The notes: a model not told the origin generated them from the sequence alone. Shown: positions 6,686-21,986, counted from the stretch's first letter. The stretch: 64,000 nucleotides of DNA from Candidatus Shapirobacteria bacterium (GCA_041658125.1 JBBAAS010000002.1:8951-72950); one strand, 5' to 3'. Translations and numbers: made by a program.

Positions 6686-6770
6686 GGAGGGTGGGCAGGA
6701 TGGTAATGCGCTGGTTTCGAAAACCAGTGTCCGCAAGGACTAACAGGTTCGACTCCTGTACCCTCCGCCA
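6686..6770 (+). tRNA. tRNA-Ser (anticodon CGA), CCA encoded
   Basis: Perfect 7-bp acceptor stem GGAGGGT/ACCCTCC with discriminator G. Anticodon stem CTGGT/ACCAG with loop TTCGAAA. Long variable arm with GTCC-GCAA-GGAC. T arm CAGG-TTCGACT-CCTG. Confidence 0.85.
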
Positions 6771-6848
6771 ACTGGGAAAAGCGGGCGAATTCAGCAAAAT
6801 TCGCCAGCCAATATTGCCCTGAAATCCGAAATTTTTATCTTTTAAAAC
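6765..6848. repeat. IR-A left copy (84 bp), overlaps the last 6 nt of tRNA-Ser
   Basis: Exact reverse complement of 8226-8309 by direct base-by-base comparison. It contains an internal hairpin GGCGAATT-CAGCAA-AATTCGCC. Confidence 0.9.
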
Positions 6849-7073
6849 GAAGTTCGAGCCGATATTTTTTAAGAAACTCCTAAATTCATAAGGATTGTTT
6901 TTCTTCAATAACATTTTGGCTTGGCTGGCGGATAAAATCATTTCTTTCACAAGTTCGAGCCAATTATTTCCTTTTGATTCAAAATCTTTTAAACCCTGCT
7001 CGATGACAGCTTGTTGATTGATAAACAAATTTTTCTTGGTAAGGTATTGTCGGTTGTCAATTAAGTTGTCGAG

Positions 7074-8201
7074 TCAGAAATTTAGCAGGTCGTCGAGTTT
7101 CCGATTGATTTCCACTTTTTGGGATAAAAGATTTTGAATCAATGGTTGAGACTGATTTTTAGCTTGATTGGTTTCTTTGTCCAACTCTACCAACATCTTT
7201 TTTACCCAGTCTTTAGGCAAAGAAACTTTTTGAATTTTGATTTTGATTTGGTTGATCAATTCTTCCTCTCGCAAATATTTTTCGGGACAATTACCTTTCT
7301 TTTTGGTACAACGATAATAGTTGTGGCCTTTTTGAGTTTCGGCAGTAATTAAGCAACCACAGCCACCACACCTCATTAGTCCCGAAAAAATAAACTCGTG
7401 TTTACGTTTTCGTTGTTTTTTGCCACGGTTACTCATCACCTCTGCTACTAAATCAAAAAGTTTCTTAGAAATAATTGGCTCATGAACTCCTTTGTATAAT
7501 TCACCATTGAATCGAATCAGTCCGTAATAAATTGGATTTTGCAACATAAATTGGACACGGGATTCAGATAAAGTTTTATCCTTGTAACTTTTAAGGTTTG
7601 ACTTAGCGAAAAATCCGGCAATACCTTTCAGGGTACAATCTCCCGATGAGTACATTTCAAATGCCTTTTTAATTAACTTTGCCTTGGGTATATCAATATC
7701 AATTCCTTTGGTTTTACGATTATTGATGTAGCCTATCGGTGCAAAAGACGGCCACAAACCATTCTTTAATTTTTGTCTAATTCCTCGCCGGATATTTTCG
7801 CTTAAATTGTCAACATAATATTTACTCTGACCAAAGGCAATATTTAACATAAACTTTCCCTGTGGAGTTGAGTCAAACCAAAAAGTGGGAAACTTTAAAT
7901 CAAGAATTTTCCCCGTGTCCAATAAATAAATGATTTTTCCGCCATCAATAGAATTTCTTGCCAATCTATCAGGGTGCCATGCAACAATGCCCTGCGCTTC
8001 GCCCTTTTCCATTCTTTCAATCATTTGATTAAAAACAATCCTTCCTGGTTTCTTGGCAGTTTTTGCCTCGGTAAACGAGGCAACGATTTCAATTTTTTGA
8101 ATTGTGGCAAATTCTTTTAATTCAGCAATTTGATCGCCAATACTTTTGATTTGTCTTTCCTCACTGTCAGTTGATTTTCTAGCGTATAAAAAGTATTTCA
8201 T
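7074..8201 (-). CDS. Large serine recombinase (resolvase/integrase family)
   Basis: 375 aa. N-terminal YARKSTDSEE...DRLARN serine-recombinase catalytic motifs. Recombinase domain and a zinc ribbon CGGCGC...YYRC...C, followed by a C-terminal coiled coil. Confidence 0.85.
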   Translation of the reverse strand: MKYFLYARKSTDSEERQIKSIGDQIAELKEFATIQKIEIVASFTEAKTAKKPGRIVFNQMIERMEKGEAQGIVAWHPDRLARNSIDGGKIIYLLDTGKILDLKFPTFWFDSTPQGKFMLNIAFGQSKYYVDNLSENIRRGIRQKLKNGLWPSFAPIGYINNRKTKGIDIDIPKAKLIKKAFEMYSSGDCTLKGIAGFFAKSNLKSYKDKTLSESRVQFMLQNPIYYGLIRFNGELYKGVHEPIISKKLFDLVAEVMSNRGKKQRKRKHEFIFSGLMRCGGCGCLITAETQKGHNYYRCTKKKGNCPEKYLREEELINQIKIKIQKVSLPKDWVKKMLVELDKETNQAKNQSQPLIQNLLSQKVEINRKLDDLLNF

Positions 8202-8225
8202 TTTTTTAAGCCCGCATTTGGCCTT

Positions 8226-8309
8226 GTTTTAAAAGATAAAAATTTCGGATTTCAGGGCAATATTGGCTGGCGAATTTTGCTGAATTCGCCCGCTTTTCCC
8301 AGTTGGCGG
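8226..8309. repeat. IR-A right copy (84 bp)
   Basis: Reverse complement of 6765-6848. It abuts IR-B and overlaps it by 4 nt. Confidence 0.9.
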
Positions 8310-8424
8310 TGTGCATTCGAAAAAATTCGAACAGAATTTTTAAATTTATAATGACGGGCGAGGTCGCCCCCACCCGACCTGCCCGCCGTGGTGGGACTGC
8401 CCGCAAAAAACAGAGGATTTCAAT
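8306..8424. repeat. IR-B left copy (119 bp) with GC-rich structured core
   Basis: Reverse complement of 13398-13516 with one mismatch at 8412. The core at 8356-8404 contains the hairpin GGGCG-AGGT-CGCCC, the dyad CCCACC...GGTGGG and a tandem CTGCCCGC. Confidence 0.9.
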
Positions 8425-8496
8425 AAAACTGCCAAAATATCGGCTCAAACTTCTTTCGGGCCAAATGCGGGCCTTTGAAAAAATTAATATTCCACT

Positions 8497-8766
8497 TTGG
8501 CATATTACATTATGGAATATATGATAGTAATTATCAAGATGATGGATAAAACGATATTTACCAGAGAACATAAGCTACTTACCAAACTACTTAGACAAGC
8601 CCGAATAGACGCGGGTTTGGATCAAATCCAGGTCGCAAAACTTTTGAAAAAAACTCAATCCTATGTATCAAAAATCGAATCAGGCCAAAGAAGAATTGAT
8701 ATTATTCAACTTAAAGAATTCGCCAGAATCTATAAGAAAAACATTAATTATTTTTTAGATAAATAG
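8497..8766 (+). CDS. XRE-family HTH regulator (R-M controller C-protein-like)
   Basis: HTH_XRE signature QIQVAKLLKKTQSYVSKIESGQRRID. A likely start at MMDKTIF gives about 75 aa. It ends 3 nt before the next ORF, which is the typical C-R arrangement. Confidence 0.6.
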   Translation: MAYYIMEYMIVIIKMMDKTIFTREHKLLTKLLRQARIDAGLDQIQVAKLLKKTQSYVSKIESGQRRIDIIQLKEFARIYKKNINYFLDK

Positions 8767-8768
8767 AT

Positions 8769-9608
8769 ATGGATACCCTTTTAACGAAAAAAGATGCAAT
8801 AAAATTGATTGGTTTAGATTCAAAAACTTTTGATAACTACTTTCGAAATGCCGATGAATTTACCAGTCAAAAGAGAATTAATGGTAAAGGTAGATTTTTA
8901 TTCAGTAAAAGTTTGCTTGATAAATGGCTAACTAGTTATGAGTGGAGAACAATTGAACTTACCTACGATGATTATGTGTTGTGTTTAGATTTCGCGTTGG
9001 CTCAGCATTTTCGAGGATATGTTCTATCTGATTGGGGTACTGCCAGACAAAGAGAATTTGGTCAAAAAATTACCAATTGGATAAAGGGTCAATTGGCCGA
9101 AGTAGCAGTAAAAAAATTTTTTAAGAGGGAATTTAACGCTGATATCGAGCTCGATTTTGGAATTCACAAGAATATCGTACCTCAAGATATTATCAGCGTA
9201 TCCATAAATGGATCAAAAAGATTACCCAGGGTTGGTATCGGTATTAAGGCCTCAAAACCAAAAAGTTCATATTTAGTTTTGGGAGAAAATGAAATAATTA
9301 TTTCAGAAAGAAGATCTGACTATTATATTTTTTGCAGGCCGGATATCCCCGATGACCATCTACTTAGACTGACTAAAGAAAAAATAACCAAAATTGTTAG
9401 TCAGCAACCCCATTTTGATAAATATAAAGATGATATTCCAAGTTTCGAAAATATATTCTGTGAGATTAGCGGGTGGTGCGGAGTTGATGAACTTGAAAGG
9501 GTTACAAGTATTCCAGGTCAAGATTTTACGGGGGTTAGGTATGTTAAAAAATCCGGACACTTACACAAAAATAAATCAGATTGGCAGAGATTAATCGACA
9601 AACTTTAA
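8769..9608 (+). CDS. Putative restriction endonuclease with N-terminal excisionase-like (HTH_17) domain
   Basis: N-terminus LLTKKDAIKLIGLDSKTFDNYF...INGKGRFLFSKSLLDKWL fits the HTH_17 pattern. It is convergent with the C5-MTase and directly downstream of the C-protein. The REase assignment is inference from context. Confidence 0.35.
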   Translation: MDTLLTKKDAIKLIGLDSKTFDNYFRNADEFTSQKRINGKGRFLFSKSLLDKWLTSYEWRTIELTYDDYVLCLDFALAQHFRGYVLSDWGTARQREFGQKITNWIKGQLAEVAVKKFFKREFNADIELDFGIHKNIVPQDIISVSINGSKRLPRVGIGIKASKPKSSYLVLGENEIIISERRSDYYIFCRPDIPDDHLLRLTKEKITKIVSQQPHFDKYKDDIPSFENIFCEISGWCGVDELERVTSIPGQDFTGVRYVKKSGHLHKNKSDWQRLIDKL

Positions 9609-9612
9609 AGAC

Positions 9613-10725
9613 CTAAAAAAGTGATTTTTGTCCGTTGCCATTTCCATTGGTCAGTTTTGGTAGCACCCATTCGTAGGGTATTTTGGCAAATGTTTTTAAG
9701 ACAGCTTCTACTATGACTTTTGCACCTTTCGGCGGCACTGCCATTCCGATTTGCTTCCTCACACTTTCCTTTGAACCTTCAAACACAAAATCATCAGGAA
9801 AAGTTTGTATCCTTGCTCTTTCTCTATTAGTCAACGCTCTGTTTTCATTCCAATGATATACATGCGTTCCTCCTCCACCGCTACCGGTAATAGTATACGA
9901 TGGTTTGTCTGGATGGAGTCGACGATATATCTGACTCATCCTAGCACCTTTTACATTTAATCTAAGATATTCTGGAATACCTTCATACCATGCGTTTTCT
10001 CCCGGGGGAATATATTTTAATCTTTCGATGACTAGTTTACCTTGTCTTGTAGTTTCATGGTTTGGAGCACTTGGACTAATTGGAGGGCTTTCAATGGCCT
10101 CTTTTGCTGTCAAGTATTTATTTACGGTTATCGGCTTCGGTACCTTAAACTTAAGTCCTAAATCCTTTCTGATACCTACAATTACCACCCTGTGTCTTGT
10201 TTGAGGTACACCATATTCTTCAAATTTATAAAGATGAGCGGTTATTGTATACCCCTTACCTGCATTTTCTAAATCCTCAAGAATTTTTATAAAAGAGTTT
10301 CCATCGTTAGCACTTTGTATACCACTCACATTTTCAGCCATAAACCACTGTGGATTGCGAATATTAATAGCTTTTAATCCATAGGTATATAAAGGACCGT
10401 ATTTCCCATTGAATCCTTTCTGCTCACCGACAACACTAAAGTCATTACAAGGGAAACCAAAGGCTAGGACGTCAAAATCAGGAACATTATTAAAATCAAT
10501 AGTTTCTACAGGAGCGCAAACAACTTTTGAGGAGGAATCATTATGGTGAATGTTGCGAGCATACGTTTTACAAGTGCTTTCATCTATATCATTGGACCAA
10601 ACTGGTTTGACTTGGATAAGCTTCCCGAACCGATCAATTACTTGAGCTTGTGTTGCACCTAGAGATAACCCCCCTGGACCACAAAACAACTCTGCAAGTT
10701 TGAATGTTTGAGTATTTTTTTTCAT
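9613..10725 (-). CDS. DNA (cytosine-5)-methyltransferase
   Basis: Motif I FCGPGGLSLG, motif IV GFPCNDFS, motif VI ENV, QTRHR. The start is set at MKKNTQ, whose ATG forms an ATGA overlap with the vsr stop. The track ORF extends to 10800. Confidence 0.9.
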   Translation of the reverse strand: MKKNTQTFKLAELFCGPGGLSLGATQAQVIDRFGKLIQVKPVWSNDIDESTCKTYARNIHHNDSSSKVVCAPVETIDFNNVPDFDVLAFGFPCNDFSVVGEQKGFNGKYGPLYTYGLKAINIRNPQWFMAENVSGIQSANDGNSFIKILEDLENAGKGYTITAHLYKFEEYGVPQTRHRVVIVGIRKDLGLKFKVPKPITVNKYLTAKEAIESPPISPSAPNHETTRQGKLVIERLKYIPPGENAWYEGIPEYLRLNVKGARMSQIYRRLHPDKPSYTITGSGGGGTHVYHWNENRALTNRERARIQTFPDDFVFEGSKESVRKQIGMAVPPKGAKVIVEAVLKTFAKIPYEWVLPKLTNGNGNGQKSLF

Positions 10726-11123
10726 AGTAACTTTTTTAGTCTTTTTATTAAATCCCCCTCTTCTCTTGTTTGACATTCCCAAATTATAGACGTTTTCCAT
10801 CCCAATCTTCTTAAATCTGTTATGGCTAGTCTTTGCAGTAGTAGATTTTTCTGAAGTTTTTCTTTCCAGTAAACTTTATTTGTTTTTGGAACTACACTCT
10901 TTTTACATCCTTTATGTTGATGCCAAAAACAACCGTTGATGAAAAGTGCGGTTTTGATCTTCGATATCACAATGTCCGGTTTGCCGGGTAATTTATTATT
11001 ATGAAGACGATACCTCATTCCCAAACTTGTTAGCATCTTTCTGGTAATTACTTCCGGTTTTGTATGCTTACTCCTAATTCTGGACATACAAAAACTTCGT
11101 TGTTTCTCTGTTAAATCATCCAT
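10722..11123 (-). CDS. vsr: Very-short-patch repair endonuclease Vsr
   Basis: 133 aa. SRIRSKHTKPE...LPGKPDIV...ALFINGCFWHQHKGC...PKTN..YW..K...N..RD...LGWKTSIIWECQ matches the Vsr signature. Confidence 0.85.
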   Translation of the reverse strand: MDDLTEKQRSFCMSRIRSKHTKPEVITRKMLTSLGMRYRLHNNKLPGKPDIVISKIKTALFINGCFWHQHKGCKKSVVPKTNKVYWKEKLQKNLLLQRLAITDLRRLGWKTSIIWECQTREEGDLIKRLKKLL

Positions 11124-11164
11124 CTTTTGTTATTTTGTCTAAGATTACTATTTTTAATTTTTGG

Positions 11165-11776
11165 TTAGAAAATGTTTGGATTGTATGTAAATACACTTTT
11201 TACAATTCCTTCTATACGAAAATCGGATGAAGCAATAAAAGTAGGAAATTTTTGATTAAATGAAGTGAGCAATATTTGTTTATCAAAGTGTTGATATTTT
11301 TTTATTAGCACTTCTTCATTATTAACACATACAATGATGTCTCCGTTATTAGCTTTGTTTGATTTTTTTGCTATTACTAAATCACCCGGATTTATTTTTG
11401 GTTTCATGGATTCACCTTTAGCTTTAACCATAAAGGCATCTGTTGATGAAAATCCTAGAATTTTACTCGAAATAGGTATTTGATCAATCGGGTTTCCGTC
11501 TAAAATCGATCCGTTTGGCCCACACTGAGCCATTCCATAAAGATTTAAATAAGTGATCAACTTTTCTGGTGTGTCACCGATAATTTGATAATCTTTTGAA
11601 TTACCGGGGTTTCTTCTCAAATATCCTAATTTTTCCAATTGAGTAATGTGGTGAAACACAACGCTTGGTGAGGATGCTCCCAGTTCTTCCTGAAGTTCTC
11701 TCATTGTGAGAGGGTTTAGTTGATATTTCTTAAGCAGTTGTAATAACTTTTGTTGGACAGGATGGATGTTTTTCAT
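11165..11776 (-). CDS. LexA/CI-like S24 peptidase repressor
   Basis: N-terminal winged-HTH (SVVFHHITQLEKLGYLRR) and a C-terminal S24 domain with GESM serine and a downstream Lys (KAKGESMKPKINPGDLVIAKK). It is divergent from the NTase operon. Confidence 0.8.
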   Translation of the reverse strand: MKNIHPVQQKLLQLLKKYQLNPLTMRELQEELGASSPSVVFHHITQLEKLGYLRRNPGNSKDYQIIGDTPEKLITYLNLYGMAQCGPNGSILDGNPIDQIPISSKILGFSSTDAFMVKAKGESMKPKINPGDLVIAKKSNKANNGDIIVCVNNEEVLIKKYQHFDKQILLTSFNQKFPTFIASSDFRIEGIVKSVFTYNPNIF

Positions 11777-11811
11777 TTATATATAACCATTTTAATCTAT
11801 ACTTTTTACCA

Positions 11812-11853
11812 TGTCAAGAACTTGTTGACTTGTTCTACTATTTGTTCTACAAT
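11812..11853. promoter_or_regulatory. Back-to-back divergent promoters overlaid with GAAC/GTTC-type repeats (putative operator)
   Basis: Plus-strand TTGACT (11825-11830), 17-bp spacer, TACAAT (11848-11853). On the minus strand, TTGACA (rc of 11812-11817), 17-bp spacer, TAAAAT. The inverted pair AGAAC (11817-21) / GTTCT (11832-36) and three direct TTGTT[CG] repeats (11822, 11831, 11843) overlie both -35 boxes and the spacer. Confidence 0.5.
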
Positions 11854-11881
11854 GGTGTTATTTAATAAAACAATTAATAAT

Positions 11882-12664
11882 ATGGATTCTGAAAATTATT
11901 TGCTTCAAATTTTACAAAAATATCAAGCTCGAGATCTATCAAATAGTTCTCCCGCTATATCTCAGTTATTTAGTGTACTTAGGACTTGGGCTAATACTGG
12001 ATTTATCGATTTAGTTATTTCTGGATCACGGGCAAAAGGAACGGCTATATCTTTAGCCTCTGACGTTGATTATCTGGTATCCCTGACAAATGGCTGTGAT
12101 GAGAATAATGGAGGTCTAGAGTATATCTATAATTCTCTTTTCAATACGCTCAATACCACCTATCAAAATGTTCGCAAACAAAATGTTTCCATAAGAATAA
12201 ATTTGTCAGGTCTAGAAATAGACGTAACTCCTGCTAGAAAACAACCTGGAAACACAAATGATCATAGTTTGTTTGTTTCTAAACAAGGAACATGGAAAAA
12301 GACAAATATTCAAAAACACATTACCGATATATCTCAGTCTGGAAGAATTAACGAAATTAAATTAGTAAAAATTTGGAGAGAGCTAAATAAACTTGACTTT
12401 CCGTCGATATATTTGGAATATTTACTGGTAGATGTCGTGTTGTCTGGTAAATCCAAAGGTGATAACAATATTGCAACTAATTTTCTTTTTGCTCTTTCAG
12501 AACTTGGCAGGAGTACAAACAATCCATTACTTACTAGAGTAGTCGATCCGGCTAATTCTACTAATATACTCTCTGATTTACTGACAAGTAGTGAAAAAAA
12601 CTTAATTATTAATAAAGCAAGAGAGTCATCCCAAAAATCAAATTGGGGTTATATCGTATGGTAA
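11882..12664 (+). CDS. Pol-beta superfamily nucleotidyltransferase, CD-NTase/SMODS-like
   Basis: GSRAKGTAISLASDVDYLV fits the GS-x(n)-DxD motif, and LEIDVTPA gives a third acidic residue in an h[DE]hhPA context as in cGAS/DncV/OAS-type NTases. The length is 260 aa. The start is chosen downstream of the mapped promoter; the track ORF starts at 11750. Confidence 0.6.
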   Translation: MDSENYLLQILQKYQARDLSNSSPAISQLFSVLRTWANTGFIDLVISGSRAKGTAISLASDVDYLVSLTNGCDENNGGLEYIYNSLFNTLNTTYQNVRKQNVSIRINLSGLEIDVTPARKQPGNTNDHSLFVSKQGTWKKTNIQKHITDISQSGRINEIKLVKIWRELNKLDFPSIYLEYLLVDVVLSGKSKGDNNIATNFLFALSELGRSTNNPLLTRVVDPANSTNILSDLLTSSEKNLIINKARESSQKSNWGYIVW

Positions 12665-13380
12665 AAAATATAAACAATAAAATTGATATGAAGAAATTAT
12701 TTTCTGCTCTAGACGAAGAGATGAGCCTGAAATTGTCCAGTAAGATTGACGAGATACATCACCCTGTGGCTAAAGGTAATGAGACCGAACTAAATTGGAT
12801 AGGACTATTGAAAAAGTATCTTCCAGAGAGATATAAGGTAGATAGTGGGTTTGTTGTTGACCATGAGGGAAGTTTTAGTGACCAGATTGATTTAATCATT
12901 TATGACCGGCATTTTACTCCGTTTATATTCCGTGGTGAGAATGTTGCCTATATACCCGCCGAAGGGGTGTACGCGGTTTTTGAAATCAAACCAGATTTGA
13001 ATAAGACCTATTACGACTATGCTGTAAAAAAACTTAATAGCGTTAAGGGATTAAAAAGAACTTCCTCAAATTTCACTCATATCATGGGGAATAGTAAGAA
13101 AGATCCGTCTGAGATAAGCGGAGGTATATTAACTAAAAAAATTAGTAGTCAAAAATTTTTTAATGGTTTAAAAACTGGAGAAGAACTATCATTTGTCTTA
13201 TGTCTCGATTGTGGTGTGAAAATTATTGGTCAGGATAAAATTGAGATACAGATCAATAAACCAATATTAGCCTTCTTCTTGCTAAAACTAATTGAAAAAC
13301 TACGATCGATGGGGTCTGTATCGGCATTAGACGTCGACAGTTATTTGGAACAAGTAAGAGATAAGCCCGAAGTCAAATAG
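12658..13380 (+). CDS. PD-(D/E)xK (Mrr-cat/NucC-like) nuclease-fold protein, putative effector
   Basis: ELNWIGLLKKYL...SDQIDLIIYD...VYAVFEIKP matches the D...ExK restriction-endonuclease-like core. Its ATG at 12658 overlaps the NTase stop (ATGGTAA), which indicates translational coupling. Confidence 0.45.
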   Translation: MVKNINNKIDMKKLFSALDEEMSLKLSSKIDEIHHPVAKGNETELNWIGLLKKYLPERYKVDSGFVVDHEGSFSDQIDLIIYDRHFTPFIFRGENVAYIPAEGVYAVFEIKPDLNKTYYDYAVKKLNSVKGLKRTSSNFTHIMGNSKKDPSEISGGILTKKISSQKFFNGLKTGEELSFVLCLDCGVKIIGQDKIEIQINKPILAFFLLKLIEKLRSMGSVSALDVDSYLEQVRDKPEVK

Positions 13381-13397
13381 GAGAATTTGCCACAAAA

Positions 13398-13516
13398 ATT
13401 GAAATCCTCCGTTTTTTGCGGGCAGTCCCACCACGGCGGGCAGGTCGGGTGGGGGCGACCTCGCCCGTCATTATAAATTTAAAAATTCTGTTCGAATTTT
13501 TTCGAATGCACACCGC
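13398..13516. repeat. IR-B right copy (119 bp)
   Basis: Reverse complement of 8306-8424 (118 of 119 identical). Confidence 0.9.
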
Positions 13517-13552
13517 AGTCCGTCTGATATGTATAAAATTGTAGAATAGCTT

Positions 13553-14173: not shown

Positions 14174-14215
14174 AATTATAAAAACTGATTAGCTTTGGGG
14201 TTATCAACTCCGTAA

Positions 14216-14719
14216 CTAGATTATTAACACCGCTTCTTTTCTATCATTTAATTTAAAACCAGCTTTAAGATGAGCTTTTATGGAATTTGGGTTATCTGTA
14301 TTAATTAAACTCCAAATCTTTTTGATATTATTTTTTTTAGCAATTTCAATAAGGTTTTTGTAAAGAAGAACGCCAATTCCCTTCCCCTGCCAGGAGGGAT
14401 CAATGGCAAGATATTCACAATAGATTTCTTGAGATATAGGAACGGTCTCAAAGGCCAAAATAAATCCTATTATTTTATTTTCCGACTCGATCAGCAAACT
14501 GTAACCTGACTTTACAAAACCGTCGAAATTAGGTTGTCGACATACGAGATGGGTTTCTTTCTCTGCCAAAATAAATTCATCCCATTTTTTCTGGCCTAAG
14601 TATTGAATTTGAGTGAGTATGTCGATCTCCCTAATTGAGGAATAATCGTCAGAAGTTATGGGTCTAATAAAATAATCAGCCATATTACCAGCTCCTTTTT
14701 CCAATGGTAATGTTTCCAT
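14216..14719 (-). CDS. GNAT family N-acetyltransferase
   Basis: Sequence ...QGKGIGVLLYKNLIEIAKKNNIKKIW... contains an acetyl-CoA binding Q/RxxGxG/A motif. Confidence 0.6.
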   Translation of the reverse strand: METLPLEKGAGNMADYFIRPITSDDYSSIREIDILTQIQYLGQKKWDEFILAEKETHLVCRQPNFDGFVKSGYSLLIESENKIIGFILAFETVPISQEIYCEYLAIDPSWQGKGIGVLLYKNLIEIAKKNNIKKIWSLINTDNPNSIKAHLKAGFKLNDRKEAVLII

Positions 14720-14800
14720 TATTCCATAATTTTATGTCGTCGTTATTTAATTTTAGAGGTAATAAATAAGTTAACCGTTGGTCTTTAAGAATTCCTTCTA

Positions 14801-15220
14801 CTACGGTAAAGATTTTGCCACGTTCTTTTTTTGCCAGCCTGATTGGGTATAAAAGTCATGAAGTTTGGGGTGACAAAAAAGAACCCCTACGTCATAATCT
14901 TTTGATTTGAGTAGGTTATTAACTTCTATCATTAATTTGGTACCCAACCCCGTATGCCTTAATCCAGACTTAATGGCTACATCACCAATACCGGCAACCA
15001 AATATTTGTTAATTTTGTGTTCGACTAACCTTCGAGTTATGCCAACGTGTCCAATTAATTCTTGATTTTGATATAGCAACACACAAGTGTCCAAATCGGG
15101 ATTGGTGTAAACAGATTTTTTATAACCGGAATTATCTGAAAAACAGTCGACCAGAAAATTAATTATTAATTTTTTCTCGGAAGACTTTAAATCTTTAATT
15201 TTTTTTATAAAAATATTCAT
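14801..15220 (-). CDS. GNAT family N-acetyltransferase
   Basis: LRHTGLGTKLM motif. 139 aa. Confidence 0.55.
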   Translation of the reverse strand: MNIFIKKIKDLKSSEKKLIINFLVDCFSDNSGYKKSVYTNPDLDTCVLLYQNQELIGHVGITRRLVEHKINKYLVAGIGDVAIKSGLRHTGLGTKLMIEVNNLLKSKDYDVGVLFCHPKLHDFYTQSGWQKKNVAKSLP

Positions 15221-16068
15221 TGACTCAATTTTTCTTTAATTAGTTTGACGGTTTGGGCTTTGCCGGGACGGTTTTGGTAGAAATGCAATTCGGTTTGGAG
15301 GGAATTGACGGGAATGGGGATATTTTGAAACAAAATGGTTGCAGGGGTACTAAGGTCTTTGATGGCGAGAACTTCGACTTCGATGACATTTATTTGTAAC
15401 TTAAGCCAGTCGGCTTCGGTGCTAACAATAAATTTTTCAAATTCTTTGGCTATTTTTCCAAAATTTTCAGGTGTAGTGAGGATGTCGAGGTCCCAAGGAA
15501 CAATATCGATTCCATGAATCATTAGGGCACCGCTGGAACTAAGGATCCAAGGGACATTGATAGAATTTAATTTTTGAGCAATAAAGACAAGAGTTTGGTG
15601 GATTTTTTCGAGACGGGGATGCTGGTTTATTTCCATAGTTCGTTTGACAATGGCGTCGCCGATAGCGCCCCAGTTTAGGTATTTATTTAGTTCTAATATC
15701 GGAACAAATTGGCGTTCGTATAAAAGACCGGTGTCCGGATCAAGAGTTTGAGGAAGAATTTTTTTAACCCGACAGTAAAAGCGGGCTTGATAATAAATAG
15801 GACTTTCAGGGATAGTTACTTTTTGAACTCCTATTGGCTCGATTTGAGTAAGCTTGACATCAACTTCCTCCATAAATTCCCGCTCTAAAGTTTCAATCGG
15901 CGACTCTTCCCCTTCCGGAGTGCCTCCGGGTAAGCCCCAATTGGTTTTGCCCGGTTCACGACAAATTAGAGCTTCGTTTTTAGCATTTAGACAAACACCA
16001 TAAACTTGGGTTATGGGTTGAAATTTTTTAATATCATCAGTCGGAATCCAGGTATAAGGAGAATTCAT
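15217..16068 (-). CDS. Nudix hydrolase fused to C-terminal minimal nucleotidyltransferase-like domain
   Basis: Nudix box GLPGGTPEGEESPIETLEREFMEEVDV in the N-terminal half. The C-terminal half carries SSSGALMIHGIDIVPWDLDILT, a pol-beta hG[GS]...DxD pattern. Confidence 0.6.
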   Translation of the reverse strand: MNSPYTWIPTDDIKKFQPITQVYGVCLNAKNEALICREPGKTNWGLPGGTPEGEESPIETLEREFMEEVDVKLTQIEPIGVQKVTIPESPIYYQARFYCRVKKILPQTLDPDTGLLYERQFVPILELNKYLNWGAIGDAIVKRTMEINQHPRLEKIHQTLVFIAQKLNSINVPWILSSSGALMIHGIDIVPWDLDILTTPENFGKIAKEFEKFIVSTEADWLKLQINVIEVEVLAIKDLSTPATILFQNIPIPVNSLQTELHFYQNRPGKAQTVKLIKEKLSQ

Positions 16069-16074
16069 AAGTTT

Positions 16075-16620
16075 TTAGAGTAGTTTTAAATAATTCAACC
16101 CTAAGTAGCCAACTTCAACATCAGTCATTTGGCCACTTTGGAGAATTTTTTTAAATTCAGCCAAGTCAACCAAAACAATGTCGATAAACTCATCTTCGTC
16201 CCAGTGCGGTTCTGACACTTTCTGACAATCGGTAATGACAAAACAATATCTTTCCATGGTTGAGTAAGCGTCATCAAGACAAGTTGTCACCAGTTGGATT
16301 TTGCCTTCGTAACCAGTTTCTTCCAGGAGTTCTCTTTTCATCGAAGCTTCCGGCTGGTCGTTTGGATCGGCAAATCCACCGGGTAATTCCATCACGATTT
16401 TTTTAGGACCGGGGCGAAATTGTTTGGCTAAAATCACTTTGTTGTCGGAGGTTAAAGCCAGTCCACAGACAGCCGGACCTTCTTTTTTGAGATAATAATC
16501 AGACTCTTTACCATTTGGAAGTTTGAAGATTACTTTTTCAATTTTGCGAGAGTATTTTTTGAAAGCTTCTTCACGAGAAATTTCCTGCCAGGGTTGGATT
16601 TTATTTGTCATACAGATCAA
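16075..16620 (-). CDS. Nudix hydrolase (ADP-ribose pyrophosphatase-like)
   Basis: Nudix box LPGGFADPNDQPEASMKRELLEETGY. Confidence 0.7.
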   Translation of the reverse strand: MICMTNKIQPWQEISREEAFKKYSRKIEKVIFKLPNGKESDYYLKKEGPAVCGLALTSDNKVILAKQFRPGPKKIVMELPGGFADPNDQPEASMKRELLEETGYEGKIQLVTTCLDDAYSTMERYCFVITDCQKVSEPHWDEDEFIDIVLVDLAEFKKILQSGQMTDVEVGYLGLNYLKLL

Positions 16621-16664: not shown

Positions 16665-17351
16665 ATGGAGTTGGGAGAATTTAGAAAGAAAAATAAGATT
16701 GAGTTGAGTGAAAAAACCAGATTGATGTGGGGGAAAGCGATGGTGGTGGCCACTAAAAACAAAGACGGGGTGCATGGGCCGGAGCATATGGAGAGGATTT
16801 TGGCATCTTTGGACGAATTACTAAAAAGCGAAAAGGGGTTGAGGGAAAAAATTGATTTTGAAGTGTTGTTGACGGCGATCGGGTGGCACGACTGCTGGAA
16901 ATCGAAAAGAAACCCGACGAATGTTTTTAGCTTTTTATTTGATATGTTTCACGAAGGCAGGGCTTCGGCAAAAATTTTTGGAAGAATAGCCAAAAGAAAC
17001 GGCTTGGAGAAAAAAACTATAAGTAAAATAAAGTATGCCATCAGAAAGCATTCGGCTTTCCAATTAAAAAAACATAAAACTATAGAAGCCAAAATACTTT
17101 GGGATTTGGACAGCTTGGATATTTGGAGTTGGGAGCGGGTGGAAGCGCTAAAAGAAAAATATTTAGCCGGAGTGGCAAGTAAAAAAACCCAAAAAATGAT
17201 CCGGGTGGGAATATTTTATTTTGAAAAAATCATGATGAGTTGGGAGGAAAAGAAAAAGTTTTATTTCAGATGGACTAAAAAAAGGTTGGCAGAGAAGAAA
17301 AAAATATTTTTAGAAAAACTGAAGGAAGAGATAAGACAAATTAAAAAATGA
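16665..17351 (+). CDS. HD-domain phosphohydrolase
   Basis: GPEHMERI...GWHDCWK contains an HD motif. The C-terminal region is Lys-rich. Confidence 0.5.
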   Translation: MELGEFRKKNKIELSEKTRLMWGKAMVVATKNKDGVHGPEHMERILASLDELLKSEKGLREKIDFEVLLTAIGWHDCWKSKRNPTNVFSFLFDMFHEGRASAKIFGRIAKRNGLEKKTISKIKYAIRKHSAFQLKKHKTIEAKILWDLDSLDIWSWERVEALKEKYLAGVASKKTQKMIRVGIFYFEKIMMSWEEKKKFYFRWTKKRLAEKKKIFLEKLKEEIRQIKK

Positions 17352-17848
17352 AGATACTTTTACATGCCTGTTGTGCTGATTGCTTGTTAAAAATTGCTGA
17401 TGGGGAAACAAAAACGACGGCGTTTTTTTATAACCCAAATATCCACCCAAGATCAGAATATCAATCGAGATTAAAGGCAATTAAGCAAGTTGCTGAAAAG
17501 CAAAAAATTGAGTTATTGGTACCGGATTGGCGGCCAAAGGAATATTTTGAGGCAGTAAAAAATAATAAAAGTCGGTGTAAAAATTGCTGGAAGCTAAGGA
17601 TAGAAAGAACGGCGAAAGAAGCTAAAGCAAAAGGATTTACCGGATTTTCGACCACGCTTTTAGCAAGCCAATATCAAAATCAAAAGGTAATTGAAAAAAT
17701 CGGACAGGAAATGGCGGAAAAATACGGAATTAAATTTTGGGTATCAAAAGAGATTAAAAGAGAGCTGAAAACAAGCGGATTTTATAAGCAGTTTTTTTGC
17801 GGGTGTGTGTATTCGCTACGGGAGAGATTGGAGGAAAAATACCGATAA
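17348..17848 (+). CDS. queH: Epoxyqueuosine reductase QueH-like (DUF208)
   Basis: N-terminal ILLHACCADC resembles the QueH LLHxCCAPC motif. It also has a CKNCWKLRIE Cys pair and a C-terminal CGC. Confidence 0.5.
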   Translation: MKILLHACCADCLLKIADGETKTTAFFYNPNIHPRSEYQSRLKAIKQVAEKQKIELLVPDWRPKEYFEAVKNNKSRCKNCWKLRIERTAKEAKAKGFTGFSTTLLASQYQNQKVIEKIGQEMAEKYGIKFWVSKEIKRELKTSGFYKQFFCGCVYSLRERLEEKYR

Positions 17849-17967
17849 ATCGTGCGTATCGGTTATGTACGTGAATACTTGACTATTATAGGATACTTTG
17901 GTAGAATACTGGGTAATTCACGCAATAGCGCGAGAAGGTAACTTAACATATAGAGGAGAGGAGAGAA

Positions 17968-18429
17968 ATGAAGATCTTTACAACGGCACACGCCGATGCA
18001 CAAAAGATACTTTGGCGAGCAGTCTGGACGGCTTCAGTCTTGATTTTATTGTTTCAGATAGCAACTACCGGCTGGTTTTTGTTTACCCAATCTGGTGGAG
18101 AAAGATGGATTCTCTTTTGGGCCGGATGCGGGCTGGGGTTTGTGATTGCCGCATTAGAGTACGCGACAGTTGAAGGATTGCGGGATCAGTGGCAACAAAC
18201 TATAGTAGACGGAAAAATCACCCGATGGGAATGGTTGTTGTTACTGGGAATTGTCTTACTGCTTACTGTGGTAGCTTTTGTTGATACCTACGCAACGGCG
18301 AATGGAGCTTTACAGCTAGGTTTTAGCAATACTATTTCTTGGATTTGGGCGGTAGGGCAACTGTTCGCTTTCGAGTTTTTGTTCAACATGGCTTATCACC
18401 TACGTGATGTGTGCGAGGTTCAACATTAG
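17968..18429 (+). CDS. Hypothetical membrane protein
   Basis: 153 aa with four predicted TM helices. A TTGACT-N17-TAGAAT promoter-like element lies at 17879-17906. Confidence 0.4.
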   Translation: MKIFTTAHADAQKILWRAVWTASVLILLFQIATTGWFLFTQSGGERWILFWAGCGLGFVIAALEYATVEGLRDQWQQTIVDGKITRWEWLLLLGIVLLLTVVAFVDTYATANGALQLGFSNTISWIWAVGQLFAFEFLFNMAYHLRDVCEVQH

Positions 18430-18577
18430 TAATTCTTCTGCTTCCCAGGTGGGATCAGTGCAACCAAAAGGTTACTCTGAGAGTTGGTTCGAATCCAGCG
18501 GCAGGAAATCTTTCCTTTCAACCCCGAGAGGCGGAATTTTGATGACGAAAGTCTAAAAATTTTGACCTCTTGGGATT

Positions 18578-18640
18578 TTGAACGTTATCCTAATGATGGG
18601 TCTGATGAGTCCCGATGTAACGTCGGGATGAAACGTTCAA
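18578..18640 (+). ncRNA. Hammerhead ribozyme-like motif (type III topology), candidate
   Basis: CUGAUGA (18602-18608). 7-bp stem II GTCCCGA/TCGGGAT with a 7-nt loop. GAA (18630-18632). 8-bp stem III ACGTTCAA (18633-40) pairs with TTGAACGT (18578-85). GUU triplet with the predicted cleavage after 18586. Short stem I ATCC-TAATGAT-GGGT. The caveat is G10.1-U11.1 in place of the usual G-C pair. Confidence 0.4.
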
Positions 18641-18721
18641 ATTGGCTATCGGATTAATTGATTAGATAATTGGAGCTTACCTTCGCATGAGCTTCGGAGG
18701 ATGCGATAAAATAGGAGTATT

Positions 18722-18793
18722 GTTTCCGTAGTTCAATGGATAGAATACGGGCCTCCGAAGCTTGAGATTCGGGTTCGACTCCCGACGGGAACA
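18722..18793 (+). tRNA. tRNA-Arg (anticodon CCG), no encoded CCA
   Basis: Acceptor stem GTTTCCG/CGGGAAC (one G-U pair) with discriminator A. D arm GTTC/GAAT. Anticodon stem CGGGC/GCTTG with loop CTCCGAA. T arm TCGGG-TTCGACT-CCCGA. Confidence 0.8.
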
Positions 18794-18811
18794 CAGTGTA
18801 GTTTATAAAGT

Positions 18812-19333
18812 TTGAAAGTACCAATGAAAACAGAGATTAATAATTATGATGAAAGATCGGCGGGAGGGGTGGTTTATAAAATAGAAAAAGGGAAAGTGGA
18901 GTGGCTAGTGATTAAAACCGGAACCAGTAAGGGTTTTGGAAGGCAAGGAGGTGGAAAAGCACCAAAAACAGCGTATAAGTTCCCAAAGGGACATTTAAAA
19001 ACCGGGGAATTTTTAAAACAAGCGGCATTGCGGGAAGTGGAGGAAGAGGGCCGGGTAAAAGCTAAAATTGTGACAAAAATCGGATCGAATAATTATTTGA
19101 TTTGGGATAAGTTAAAAAAGAAAAAAATAATTAAAAAAGTAACGTTTTTTTTGATGGAATATAGGGAAGAGAGCCGACTTAAGTATTTTGATGCGGAAGT
19201 GGTGTTGGAAAGAGTGTGGCTCCCCTACCAGGAAGCGGCAGAAAAATTGGAATATCATTCGGAAAAAGTGCTATTGGGAAAAGCGGAAAAAACACTACAG
19301 GCTTTATTAAAAGGCCAAAAAGCCGTAAAATAG
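18812..19333 (+). CDS. Nudix hydrolase
   Basis: Nudix box FPKGHLKTGEFLKQAALREVEEEGRV. Confidence 0.65.
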   Translation: MKVPMKTEINNYDERSAGGVVYKIEKGKVEWLVIKTGTSKGFGRQGGGKAPKTAYKFPKGHLKTGEFLKQAALREVEEEGRVKAKIVTKIGSNNYLIWDKLKKKKIIKKVTFFLMEYREESRLKYFDAEVVLERVWLPYQEAAEKLEYHSEKVLLGKAEKTLQALLKGQKAVK

Positions 19334-19343
19334 GTCGTTTGAT

Positions 19344-19428
19344 GGAGAGGTCGGATAGTGGTTCATTCCACAGACCTGGAAAGTCTGCGGCCCAAAAGGC
19401 CTCGCGGGTTCGAATCCCGCCCTCTCCG
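19344..19428 (+). tRNA. tRNA-Ser (anticodon GGA), no encoded CCA
   Basis: Acceptor stem GGAGAGG/CCTCTCC with discriminator G. Anticodon stem CAGAC/GTCTG with loop CTGGAAA. Long variable arm CGGCCC-AAAA-GGCCTC. T arm GCGGG-TTCGAAT-CCCGC. Confidence 0.85.
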
Positions 19429-19462
19429 CTCAATATAGTAACCATCAAAATTGATTGTATAA

Positions 19463-19945
19463 TTGGGTATGAATATAAGCTTGGTTCCAATAAAAATTAG
19501 CGAGAAAGATGTCTTGAAGGAAATGCTTTATGAATATGAGAAAGAAATGTCGGATGGAGAACCTGGTGAATATAAGTATTTAGATTCGTACTGGCAAAAA
19601 CCTGATCGATTTCCCTTCTTTATTGAAGTTGACGAAAAAATTGCGGGGTTTGTTTTAGTTAATAGTTATAATTTGGTGATAGATGAAGGTAAAAATATTG
19701 CTGAATTTTACGTTGAAAAAGAATTCAGAAAAAACGGGATTGGAAGAGAAGCGTCAAGACAAATTTTTAACTTGTTTCCAGGAAAATGGGAAATCAGACA
19801 GATTATAGAAAATCCTAAAGCTCGTTTGTATTGGTTGAAGTTAATGACGGAATTTACAAAAAATAATTTTACTGAAAAATTTGTTGATAATGACAAGTGG
19901 CATGGATGGATTCAGGTGTTTAATATGAACGGAAATAAGTTCTAA
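19463..19945 (+). CDS. GNAT-like acetyltransferase
   Basis: IAGFVLVNS...FYVEKEFRKNGIGREA pattern. Confidence 0.5.
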   Translation: MGMNISLVPIKISEKDVLKEMLYEYEKEMSDGEPGEYKYLDSYWQKPDRFPFFIEVDEKIAGFVLVNSYNLVIDEGKNIAEFYVEKEFRKNGIGREASRQIFNLFPGKWEIRQIIENPKARLYWLKLMTEFTKNNFTEKFVDNDKWHGWIQVFNMNGNKF

Positions 19946-19995
19946 TTTCGTTTCAGACTCTCTGCCAGGTAAGGTGAGTTTGCTACAATTTTGTA

Positions 19996-20808
19996 ATGTC
20001 AGGAATAGCTATGCCCAATAAAGAAATATTAGAAGCGTTTGGGTGTAAGGGAGAGGCCAGATTATTATCAGGAGGAGAAGGAAGATCGTATTTGGCGAGA
20101 GATATCGTGTTAAAGCCGATTGATAATATTGAAGAAGCGATTTGGGTAGCTGACTTAATGAATGCAATCGTTGAAGATGAGTTTAGAGTGGCCAGGCCAA
20201 TCAAGGCAAGAAATGGAAGCTGGATTTATCAAAGTTGGACAGCGTTTAAATATTTGGAAGGTGAGGCGTCAAAACAACGGGCGAGGGAGAAATTTGAGGT
20301 GGCGCGTAATTTTCATAAAGCGCTAGCGGGTTGCAAACGACCGGTTTTTTTGGATACCAAAGTTAATCCGTATGTAACTGCGGACCGGATGGTGTGGGGA
20401 AAACAACTTTTTACAATGAGCGATCAGCTGAAACCGTTTTTGACGCCAATAGCGGCGAAATTAAAACCTATTGAATTGGAAGAGCAATTAATTCACGGAG
20501 ACATGACGGGTAATATTTTATTTCACGAAACATTACCGTCGGCAGTGGTTGATATGACGCCTTATTGGCATCCGGCAAAATATGCCGAGGCAATTATTAC
20601 AGTTGATGCGATGGTTTGGGACGGGGCCGACGATACGTTGCTTGACATGCTTGATAATACCTTTGAAATGAACCAGTTAATGCTCCGGGCGGCTATTTGG
20701 CGGATTAAAATAACCGATGAATTTTTTTTGGAAGGTAAAAAAAGCGATTTGGATTTTGAAAATTACAGACATTTTTTTGAGTTGCTTTTGAAAAGAATGA
20801 ATATCTGA
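19996..20808 (+). CDS. Aminoglycoside phosphotransferase (APH)/protein-kinase-fold phosphotransferase
   Basis: IHGDMTGNILFHE matches the HxDxxxxN catalytic loop of the APH/ePK fold. Confidence 0.55.
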   Translation: MSGIAMPNKEILEAFGCKGEARLLSGGEGRSYLARDIVLKPIDNIEEAIWVADLMNAIVEDEFRVARPIKARNGSWIYQSWTAFKYLEGEASKQRAREKFEVARNFHKALAGCKRPVFLDTKVNPYVTADRMVWGKQLFTMSDQLKPFLTPIAAKLKPIELEEQLIHGDMTGNILFHETLPSAVVDMTPYWHPAKYAEAIITVDAMVWDGADDTLLDMLDNTFEMNQLMLRAAIWRIKITDEFFLEGKKSDLDFENYRHFFELLLKRMNI

Positions 20809-20825
20809 AGAGATGTTAGAATTTA

Positions 20826-21986
20826 GTGGCTATGGATTATAAAGAAGAGTCACTGAAACAACATTTGAAGTTTGGGGGCAAGATCGGGATTAAAAGTAAA
20901 TTCCCGGAAATAAAAACGAAGGATGATTTGGCGGTGGCTTATACGCCGGGAGTAGCGGCGGTGTCGTCGTTTTTGGCGGCAAATCCGGACGAAGCATATG
21001 GATATTCGATTAAGGGCAATACAATTGCGGTAGTGTCGGATGGATCGGCGGTGCTGGGACTCGGTAACATCGGGCCTTATGGAGCTTTGCCGGTAATGGA
21101 GGGAAAAGCACTTTTGTTTAAAGAATTTGGCGATGTGGATGCTTATCCGATAGTGTTGTCAACTCAAGAGACCGAGGAAATAATAGAAACAGTAAAAGCA
21201 ATCGCGCCGACCTTTGGGGGAATAAATTTGGAAGATATTTCATCGCCACGGTGCTTTGAGGTGGAGGAAAGACTGATAAAGGAACTCGATATCCCGGTTT
21301 TTCACGACGATCAGCACGGAACGGCAATTGTGATTTTGGCGGCCTTGATTAACGGCTTGAAACTGGCTAAAAAGCAAATGGGAAAAATCAAAATGGTGAT
21401 CAGCGGCGCCGGGGCGGCGGGAATTGCCACAACTAAACTTCTCCTAAAATACGGCATTAAAAATATTACTTTAGTTGATTCGCAAGGAGTAATCAGCAAA
21501 AAACGGACTGATTTAAACGAAGTAAAAATGAAAATGCTTCCGGTTACCAATCCGGAAAATAGTGAAGGTGGTTTAGAAAATGCTTTAAAAGGCGCGGACG
21601 TGTTTATCGGGGTGAGTGCGCCGGGAGTATTAAAGCCGGAATTTATTAAAACTATGGCCGAAAAACCGATTATTTTTGCCATGGCTAATCCGGTGCCGGA
21701 AATTATGCCTGATTTGGCAAAAGAAGCCGGAGCCTTTGTGGTCGGAACAGGCCGGAGTGATTTTCCAAATCAAATAAATAATGTGCTGGTTTTCCCGGGA
21801 TTGTTTAGAGGAGTTTTAGATAACAAAATTAAATTGATTACCGATGAAATGAAAATTGCAGCGGCGGAGACGTTGGCCGGTTATCTGAAAGATGATGAAT
21901 TGAGTGTCGATAAAATACTGCCAAGTGTACTGGATAAAAAAGTGTCGACAGCGATTGCCGAAAGAATGGCGGAGTTTAAGGAGTAA
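20826..21986 (+). CDS. NAD(P)-dependent malic enzyme (short form)
   Basis: LAVAYTPGVA, VVSDGSAVLGLGNIGPYGALPVMEGKALLFKEFGDVDAYP and the Rossmann motif GAGAAGIA. Confidence 0.85.
   Translation: MAMDYKEESLKQHLKFGGKIGIKSKFPEIKTKDDLAVAYTPGVAAVSSFLAANPDEAYGYSIKGNTIAVVSDGSAVLGLGNIGPYGALPVMEGKALLFKEFGDVDAYPIVLSTQETEEIIETVKAIAPTFGGINLEDISSPRCFEVEERLIKELDIPVFHDDQHGTAIVILAALINGLKLAKKQMGKIKMVISGAGAAGIATTKLLLKYGIKNITLVDSQGVISKKRTDLNEVKMKMLPVTNPENSEGGLENALKGADVFIGVSAPGVLKPEFIKTMAEKPIIFAMANPVPEIMPDLAKEAGAFVVGTGRSDFPNQINNVLVFPGLFRGVLDNKIKLITDEMKIAAAETLAGYLKDDELSVDKILPSVLDKKVSTAIAERMAEFKE

Follow-up and report, generated by a model that had tools for sequence, protein, structure and literature searches.

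The window analysed here, a 64,000-nt stretch of DNA, comes from a MAG contig of Candidatus Shapirobacteria, a lineage of the Candidate Phyla Radiation (CPR), in JGI metagenome 3300028032. Around the locus of interest all genes lie on the plus strand, in the order queH (17348-17848), ORF153 (17968-18429), an intergenic region of 292 nt, tRNA-Arg(CCG), a NUDIX gene and tRNA-Ser(GGA). Beyond tRNA-Ser(GGA) follow genes for GNAT, APH, malic enzyme and purF; the neighbouring genes are cellular. The intergenic region holds a type III hammerhead motif, encoded on the same strand as all flanking genes. It is identical in three contigs of the same population, which are the sole copies seen. The features discussed below are:

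17849 to ~18650, plus strand: strain-specific segment (indel) of about 0.8 kb, delimited by blastn and pairwise comparison with the related locus L157
17879 to 17907, plus strand: putative sigma-70-like promoter of the cassette (TTGACT, 17-nt spacer, TAGAAT, TG just upstream of the -10), a pattern match only, scoring 10/12 in a consensus scan
17968 to 18429, plus strand: ORF153, a small hydrophobic membrane-type protein of 153 aa, from translation, with a GGAG-rich ribosome-binding site ahead
18436 to 18507, plus strand: pseudo-tRNA (tRNA-like cloverleaf) of 72 nt, from ARAGORN -ps80 and minimum-free-energy folds
18523 to 18574, plus strand: long imperfect hairpin followed by AUUUUG, from folds
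18578 to 18640, plus strand: type III hammerhead motif, from sequence reading, fold, descriptor and shuffles, with predicted cleavage at U18586/A18587
18651 to 18712, plus strand: spacer in common with L157, with promoter-like elements for tRNA-Arg(CCG), from the L157 alignment
18722 to 18794, plus strand: tRNA-Arg(CCG), from ARAGORN and Rfam (59.9 bits), a neighbour and not a part of the ribozyme unit

Further downstream, the NUDIX ORF contains, in its 3'-terminal part, the -10 box of tRNA-Ser(GGA), and the order tRNA-Arg(CCG)-NUDIX-tRNA-Ser(GGA) is conserved across Shapirobacteria-like genomes (window 18722-19429). NUDIX homologues are annotated as CCA-adding enzyme in some sources, which hints at a tRNA-related role.

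The closest comparison was provided by L157, a locus that a queH search brought up (91% protein identity) and whose sequence runs collinear to the window, with a nucleotide identity of 88-94%. There, an identical tRNA-Arg(CCG) begins 97 nt past the queH stop codon, and 94 nt (L157 2933-3026) stand in place of 870 nt of the window (17849-18718). Homology resumes at GGATTAATTGATTA, at about 18651, ten nt past the end of the hammerhead. The hammerhead sits at the 3' edge of the strain-specific segment, preceded within it by the promoter-like site, ORF153, the pseudo-tRNA and the hairpin. No clean target-site duplication was found at the segment ends, weak similarity alone, and 26 of 2,000 shuffles (~1%) scored as well as the two junctions. 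Since these junctions resemble each other only weakly, the comparison does not distinguish an insertion here from a deletion in L157. A second copy of the cassette was found neither in the window nor in the loci compared, and no phage genes are present within the cassette.

Further differences from L157 were observed upstream. A 6.8-kb segment adjoining tRNA-Ser(CGA) (6765-13534), 5 kb upstream of the cassette, is absent from L157. It carries a serine recombinase gene (7074-8201, minus strand) between perfect 84-nt inverted repeats (6765-6848 and 8226-8309), the left arm of which begins within the 3' end of tRNA-Ser(CGA). A second inverted repeat, 136 nt long at 93% identity (8306-8441 and 13381-13516), surrounds genes for HTH, DNA methylase, Vsr, LexA-like, SMODS and DUF6602 proteins, and the whole of 6765-13534 looks like an invertible or mobile defence island. 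Additional indels relative to L157, with extra GNAT and NUDIX paralogues, are located at 14174-15624 and 16070-16607, and small insertions make a patchwork of the region from 13 to 19 kb.

The region surrounding the cassette is a variable, tRNA-rich hotspot of strain-specific indels. With a segment that is absent from L157, an ORF that is rare and a recombinase island nearby, the hammerhead occupies the kind of location in which those of bacterial mobile DNA are found.

ORF153 itself has few relatives. A word-indexed protein search matched only ORF153, and Pfam, PHROG, NCBIfam and PADLOC gave no assignment. A HMMER scan of 1.84 billion representatives detected seven other proteins with E-values no higher than 0.001. 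Five of these, small proteins of 153-167 aa, align over nearly the full length at 30-43% identity. Loci fetched for five of the homologues (seven loci, L158-L164) have a hairpin-plus-U-tract terminator downstream of every homologue, and neither a hammerhead nor a pseudo-tRNA was found in them. Because it is absent from all seven, the ribozyme is not a conserved companion of the ORF153 family. A terminator scan of 17800-19600 called no canonical intrinsic terminator after ORF153. All homologues elsewhere have such a terminator and ORF153 does not, which makes it plausible that some other device forms the 3' end here, and the position of the hammerhead may correspond to that of the terminator in the relatives. 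The Rfam search gave no other ribozyme match upstream of ORF153 or at 17750-18450; that is, ORF153 is not flanked by a pair of ribozymes.

One of the homologue loci contains a disrupted tRNA duplicate. Near the distant ORF153 homologue in L163 (~2580-2738; the same in L164), an intact tRNA-Thr(UGU) is preceded by an incomplete copy of its 5' portion (GCCGACTTAGCTCAGCGGTAG). A 33-nt hairpin splits this copy, and a degenerate anticodon arm comes after it. This is a further case of a rearrangement next to a tRNA in the neighbourhood of the ORF153 family.

The hammerhead motif reads, in order, UUGAACGU-U / AUCC(UAAUGAU)GGGU-CUGAUGA-GUCCCGA(UGUAACG)UCGGGAU-GAA-ACGUUCAA. Three helices surround the core; the RNA begins and ends in stem III, and hairpin loops close stems I and II, which is the topology of type III. 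Stem III consists of eight Watson-Crick pairs between UUGAACGU (18578-18585) and ACGUUCAA (18633-18640), is closed by A15.1(18633)-U16.1(18585) and may gain a ninth pair, 18577/18641. The conserved core is complete, with C3 to A9 as CUGAUGA (18602-18608) and G12, A13 and A14 at 18630-18632. Position 17 is U (18586), one of the non-G bases that define H17, which gives a GUU triplet and a scissile bond between 18586 and 18587. Stem II pairs GUCCCGA (18609-18615) with UCGGGAU (18623-18629) over 7 bp and can be extended to 9 bp, leaving a UAA triloop. Stem I, formed by AUCC (18587-18590) and GGGU (18598-18601) around the loop UAAUGAU, has 4 bp. The right order and spacing of the core elements, the 7-bp stem II, the GAA, the A15.1-U16.1 pair and the 8-bp stem III agree with what the sequence-only reading had described. 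The two weak points that it had named also stand, namely the G.U at 10.1-11.1 and a stem I of 4 bp, which includes one U.G.

The pair at 10.1-11.1 is the sole departure from the canonical core environment. Here G10.1 (18609) is kept and C11.1 is changed to U (18629), so that a wobble replaces the canonical G10.1-C11.1. A G-C at this position is highly conserved in canonical hammerheads (PMC4209133), and the pairs that Perreault et al. excluded at 10.1-11.1 were solely outright mispairs (PMC3088659). We found no published activity data for the C11.1U change in the hammerhead literature searched. Inspection of loops I and II, which have 7 nt each, revealed no Watson-Crick pseudoknot between them and no Watson-Crick complement of 3 nt or more, with at most one A-U and two G.U pairs. 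The two loops could in principle still touch, in the kind of tertiary contact that fast cleavage at cellular Mg2+ would need.

As a 63-nt RNA, the motif has the hammerhead as its minimum-free-energy structure (-22.4 kcal/mol, z = -3.2), and this fold was kept in the minimum-free-energy structure of a 376-nt context. Both strands of the window were scanned with a type III descriptor (CUGANGA, GAAA, U16.1, H17 (non-G), stems of at least 3/3/4 bp), and the sole match was 18578-18640, with stems of 4, 9 and 9 bp. The same descriptor matched once in 0.5 Mb of other loci, and that match was obviously spurious. Chance was assessed with 7,000 dinucleotide-preserving shuffles of the window (1,000 + 6,000). 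Relaxed descriptor matches occurred at a rate of 0.02 per shuffled window, and the best of the 6,000 shuffles had 19 stem pairs in total (versus 22 observed). In the separate set of 1,000, none reached the observed stem lengths (at least 4/7/8 bp).

The sequence-only reading had proposed an Infernal search as a check and had counted a score below threshold against the motif. Hammerhead_3 was the best Rfam family for the region, with an alignment spanning the full model (1-54), but it scored 24.5 bits against a gathering score of 48.5 (E-value 0.0066 in a 501-nt search). What lowers the score is U11.1, U17, the shortness of stem I and the long insertion in stem II. At the gathering threshold, Rfam found tRNAs alone in the whole window and no hammerhead, and an Infernal scan of the whole window by E-value left the hammerhead unreported, with no ribozyme at E-values up to 2. 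We conclude that the motif at 18578-18640 is genuine and no product of chance, yet an atypical member of its class that scores below the threshold.

The 292-nt intergenic region as a whole is highly structured (z = -4.2). Starting 6 nt past the ORF153 stop codon, 18436-18507 fold into a cloverleaf with a 7-bp acceptor stem (UUCUGCU/GGCAGGA) and a perfect T arm (GUUGG-UUCGAAU-CCAGC), a weak D arm and an anticodon loop of 6 nt (CAAAAG). This pseudo-tRNA was unseen by standard ARAGORN and by the Rfam tRNA model. A T-arm-like segment, GGTTCGAATCC (18487-18497), had been noted before as one that does not fold into a complete tRNA; with ARAGORN at reduced threshold and in minimum-free-energy folds, it falls within the cloverleaf. 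Among the 48 tRNAs of the loci compared, none stood above background as a parent. ARAGORN in tmRNA mode and Rfam returned nothing for 18436-18507 as a tmRNA, a YrlA-like or another known tRNA-like RNA.

The hairpin that follows (18523-18574) was not called as a terminator by the terminator scan. Its tip carries UGAUGA..CGAAA (18540-18553). Pseudo-tRNA and hairpin together (18436-18586) folded with z = -4.5, and 0 of 200 shuffles folded as well. While the hammerhead is unformed, the hairpin can be extended to 18517-18582 by pairing UUCAA (18517-18521) with UUGAA (18578-18582) in the 5' strand of stem III, and this modelled alternative could delay or gate folding of the ribozyme.

On its other side, the hammerhead ends 81 nt before tRNA-Arg(CCG), close to the 80 nt or so estimated earlier. 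The cleavage site is located 135 nt before the 5' end of this tRNA and 79 nt past the 3' end of the pseudo-tRNA. The spacer in common with L157 contains a conserved block, GGATTAATTGATTAGATAAT (18651-18670), and a -10 box, TAAAAT (18707-18712), which ends 9 nt before the tRNA and is downstream of the hammerhead. Similar hexamers (TAAAAT, TATAAT, TAGAAT, TACAAT) end 9-14 nt before each stand-alone tRNA of the window, and a -10 box at like distance precedes tRNA-Arg(CCG) in L004, L008, L009, L010 and L157. The NUDIX protein is well conserved, and the order tRNA-Arg(CCG)-NUDIX-tRNA-Ser(GGA) recurs in L004, L008, L009 and L010. These four loci have no hammerhead and just a 70-90-nt spacer upstream of the tRNA. 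With its -10 box downstream of the ribozyme, the tRNA thus has its own promoter, and in all relatives it is made without a ribozyme.

Relatives of the ribozyme were sought in several collections. A NUDIX protein-anchored scan of GTDB genomes found no hammerhead among at least seven close loci in the matches listed. The contig of P0002, a NUDIX relative at 94% identity, would begin just past the ribozyme position, and in L084, the locus of P0003, the element would not fit. When 17000-21000 and the 292-nt intergenic region were compared by BLAST with 50,697 phage records, the outcome was one tRNA-sized match and otherwise noise. A metagenome scan tied to the present stem II sequence (query CTGATGAGTCCC..GGGATGAAAC) yielded 47 loci, none resembling the type III motif of the window or its surroundings: a hammerhead-like repeat of coral metagenomes, in which stem III is palindromic, accounts for 40, and the others are unrelated. 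L088 alone of these loci reached 28 bits on Hammerhead_3. Viral scans found neither the U11.1 version nor a pseudo-tRNA T arm plus acceptor. The C11.1 version was matched in 25 phage contigs. Their type I hammerheads, at most four to a contig, directly follow stop codons, which is the classic setting in phages, and none of these resembles the window motif. Conservation, a further check proposed by the sequence-only reading, was not seen, as no homologous locus with the motif was found in L157, the four syntenic loci or the seven loci of ORF153 homologues. With no homologue in the collections scanned, there is no covariation and no sign of purifying selection for this single copy. Of the three outcomes that the sequence-only reading had named as refuting, two therefore formally apply, the score under the threshold and the lack of homologues with covarying stems.

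The coral family (L085, L089-L093, L095-L131; many Ga01263xx and Ga00998xx samples) reads CUGAUGAGUCCCUUGGC(A/C)GGGAUGAAAC, followed by the palindromic stem III. Its contigs sometimes carry two inverted copies, have ~38-40% GC and look eukaryotic. The family resembles dimeric retroelement-type hammerheads but differs from them by a U at 11.1; as far as sequence can tell, the coral loci show the GGGAUGAAAC version occurring in natural hammerhead-like repeats. Among the phage contigs, L148 (9603-11435) and L153 (6625-8240) each bear four canonical type I hammerheads directly after stop codons (..TAACUCCC-CUGAUGA..), and these arrays punctuate consecutive small phage genes.

How the motif is to be understood depends on several competing explanations. 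That the motif resembles a hammerhead by accident, without sharing descent with the class, is extremely improbable: scaled to the window and all families, the covariance-model E-value extrapolates to ~0.8, and the match is missing from the whole-window E-value scan, but the 22 stem pairs were not reached in the 6,000 shuffles, nor the observed stem lengths in the separate 1,000, and relaxed matches were rare. The main rival, unlikely in our estimate yet deserving real weight, is a decaying relic, that is, a genuine hammerhead that arrived with foreign DNA but now cleaves too slowly to be useful and plays no role. Decay would be consistent with the sub-threshold Rfam score, with the wobble pair at 10.1-11.1 and with the unbalanced lengths of the first two stems, as with the strain-specific occurrence of a singleton without conservation, and Perreault et al. 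state that some genomic hammerheads may be non-functional (PMC3088659). However, none of the 11 strictly required core bases is altered and no stem pair is lost, stem III having eight Watson-Crick pairs and stem II 7-9 bp. These are the places where neutral decay should strike first, and the G.U wobble still pairs and retains G10.1.

Two further explanations assign the ribozyme a role in tRNA-related processing. The sequence-only reading had placed self-cleavage in a transcript running into tRNA-Arg(CCG), and the ribozyme might process the 5' leader of this precursor, as ribozymes trim phage tRNAs. Both lie on the same strand, so that read-through transcripts would hold the two together, and tRNA-adjacent ribozymes do exist in the form of theta ribozymes (PMC10879173). 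Yet the identical tRNA occurs without a ribozyme in L157, four other relatives also lack one, and the conserved -10 box, 9-14 nt before the tRNA, is downstream of the ribozyme. The cut would moreover leave a 135-nt leader for RNase P, whereas theta ribozymes cut within 5 nt of their tRNA (PMC10879173). Leader processing thus appears largely refuted by the comparison with relatives, and we regard it as very improbable; a role in tRNA maturation is not supported. Slightly less remote, though still improbable, is a small-RNA module in which RNase P at 18436 and the hammerhead at 18586 would free a tRNA-like plus hairpin RNA of ~151 nt with a cyclic-phosphate end. An acceptor stem and T arm make up a minimal RNase P substrate, and both are intact in the pseudo-tRNA just behind the stop codon; the stability of the cloverleaf plus hairpin, unmatched by shuffles, also fits. 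Against this, no homologue of the arrangement turned up in the loci and collections scanned, and the pseudo-tRNA may be a decayed tRNA copy, as beside the ORF153 homologue in L163. Such a module would also terminate and insulate the cassette transcript, an outcome to which we give the same slim chance. This 3'-end formation by a ribozyme plus a tRNA mimic would conceptually resemble MALAT1/mascRNA and mitochondrial tRNA punctuation; to our knowledge, it has not yet been described in bacteria.

On balance, and with modest confidence, we favour a hammerhead, active now or until recently, by which transcripts of the cassette and those reading through it are trimmed at U18586/A18587 and thereby uncoupled from the host tRNA-Arg-NUDIX-tRNA-Ser unit. 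Transcripts starting at the putative cassette promoter, or reading through from queH, would fold the ribozyme co-transcriptionally and cut themselves between U18586 and A18587. The upstream product would be an ORF153 mRNA with a tRNA-like and hairpin tail and a 2',3'-cyclic-phosphate end, and everything 3' of the cut would carry a 5'-OH. The likely effect would be a cassette transcript that is ended or trimmed and uncoupled from a host unit with its own promoter. The motif is positioned downstream of the promoter-like site of the cassette and upstream of the -10 box of the tRNA; catalytic activity and an insulating or 3'-end-forming role are what we infer for it. Two observations speak against this reading: the hairpin and AUUUUG just upstream could already stop many transcripts, and known bacterial cases often flank their ORF on both sides, whereas none is found upstream of ORF153. 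A trimming or uncoupling role in a cassette setting would place the ribozyme among the intergenic hammerheads already known from variable or mobile DNA of bacteria, where small non-conserved ORFs adjoin them.

If active, the ribozyme would add a hammerhead to the Candidate Phyla Radiation. The searchable open-access literature held no relevant papers on hammerheads in CPR, and the papers mentioning both hammerhead and Patescibacteria were unrelated. It would also be a natural ribozyme exactly at the junction of an inserted gene cassette and a host tRNA operon, a position that would support the view of bacterial hammerheads as transcript cutters or insulators for mobile DNA. The motif offers a test case for relaxing the G10.1-C11.1 rule and the Rfam thresholds in searches. 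Otherwise it opens no new biological question, being one more ordinary instance of an established ribozyme class in familiar surroundings: a hammerhead beside a small non-conserved ORF in variable DNA is already known, and what is new is the context in a CPR host and the atypical singleton.

Compared with Rfam family RF00008 (clan CL00010), the motif has the same three-way junction open at stem III, the CUGAUGA and GAAA strands, the A15.1-U16.1 pair and an NUH triplet (GUU). It differs in the G.U at 10.1-11.1, in having U17 and not the commoner C, in a stem II of 7-9 bp and a stem I of 4 bp, in its score (24.5 versus 48.5 bits) and in that no family of relatives was found for it. Bacterial hammerheads are described as intergenic, often near integrases or prophages and often flanking small non-conserved ORFs, with a presumed role in dividing long transcripts into units (Perreault et al. 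2011, PMC3088659; de la Pena et al. 2017, PMC6155905). Like these, the window motif is intergenic, on the sense strand and beside a small ORF, in strain-variable DNA near a recombinase island, with transcript cutting as its presumed role. Unlike them, it is single and not part of a flanking pair or array, is of type III, has a CPR host and sits in a cassette without phage genes; the hammerheads right after stop codons in the 25 phage contigs are of type I.

Theta ribozymes, the minimal HDV-like, tRNA-associated ribozymes of gut phages, are found downstream of a tRNA and cut within 5 nt of its 3' end (PMC10879173). The likeness consists in a small self-cleaving RNA near a tRNA gene. Theirs is an HDV-like fold, whereas the site described here belongs to a hammerhead, 135 nt upstream of tRNA-Arg and 79 nt downstream of the pseudo-tRNA, and in neither case within 5 nt. 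A mechanistic parallel may be RiboJ, an engineered, synthetic insulator made of the sTRSV type III hammerhead plus a hairpin after the ribozyme. There, a type III hammerhead between transcription units strips the upstream RNA context from the downstream transcript. By analogy, the same insulating mechanism would operate at the window site, with the difference that here the hairpin comes before the ribozyme.
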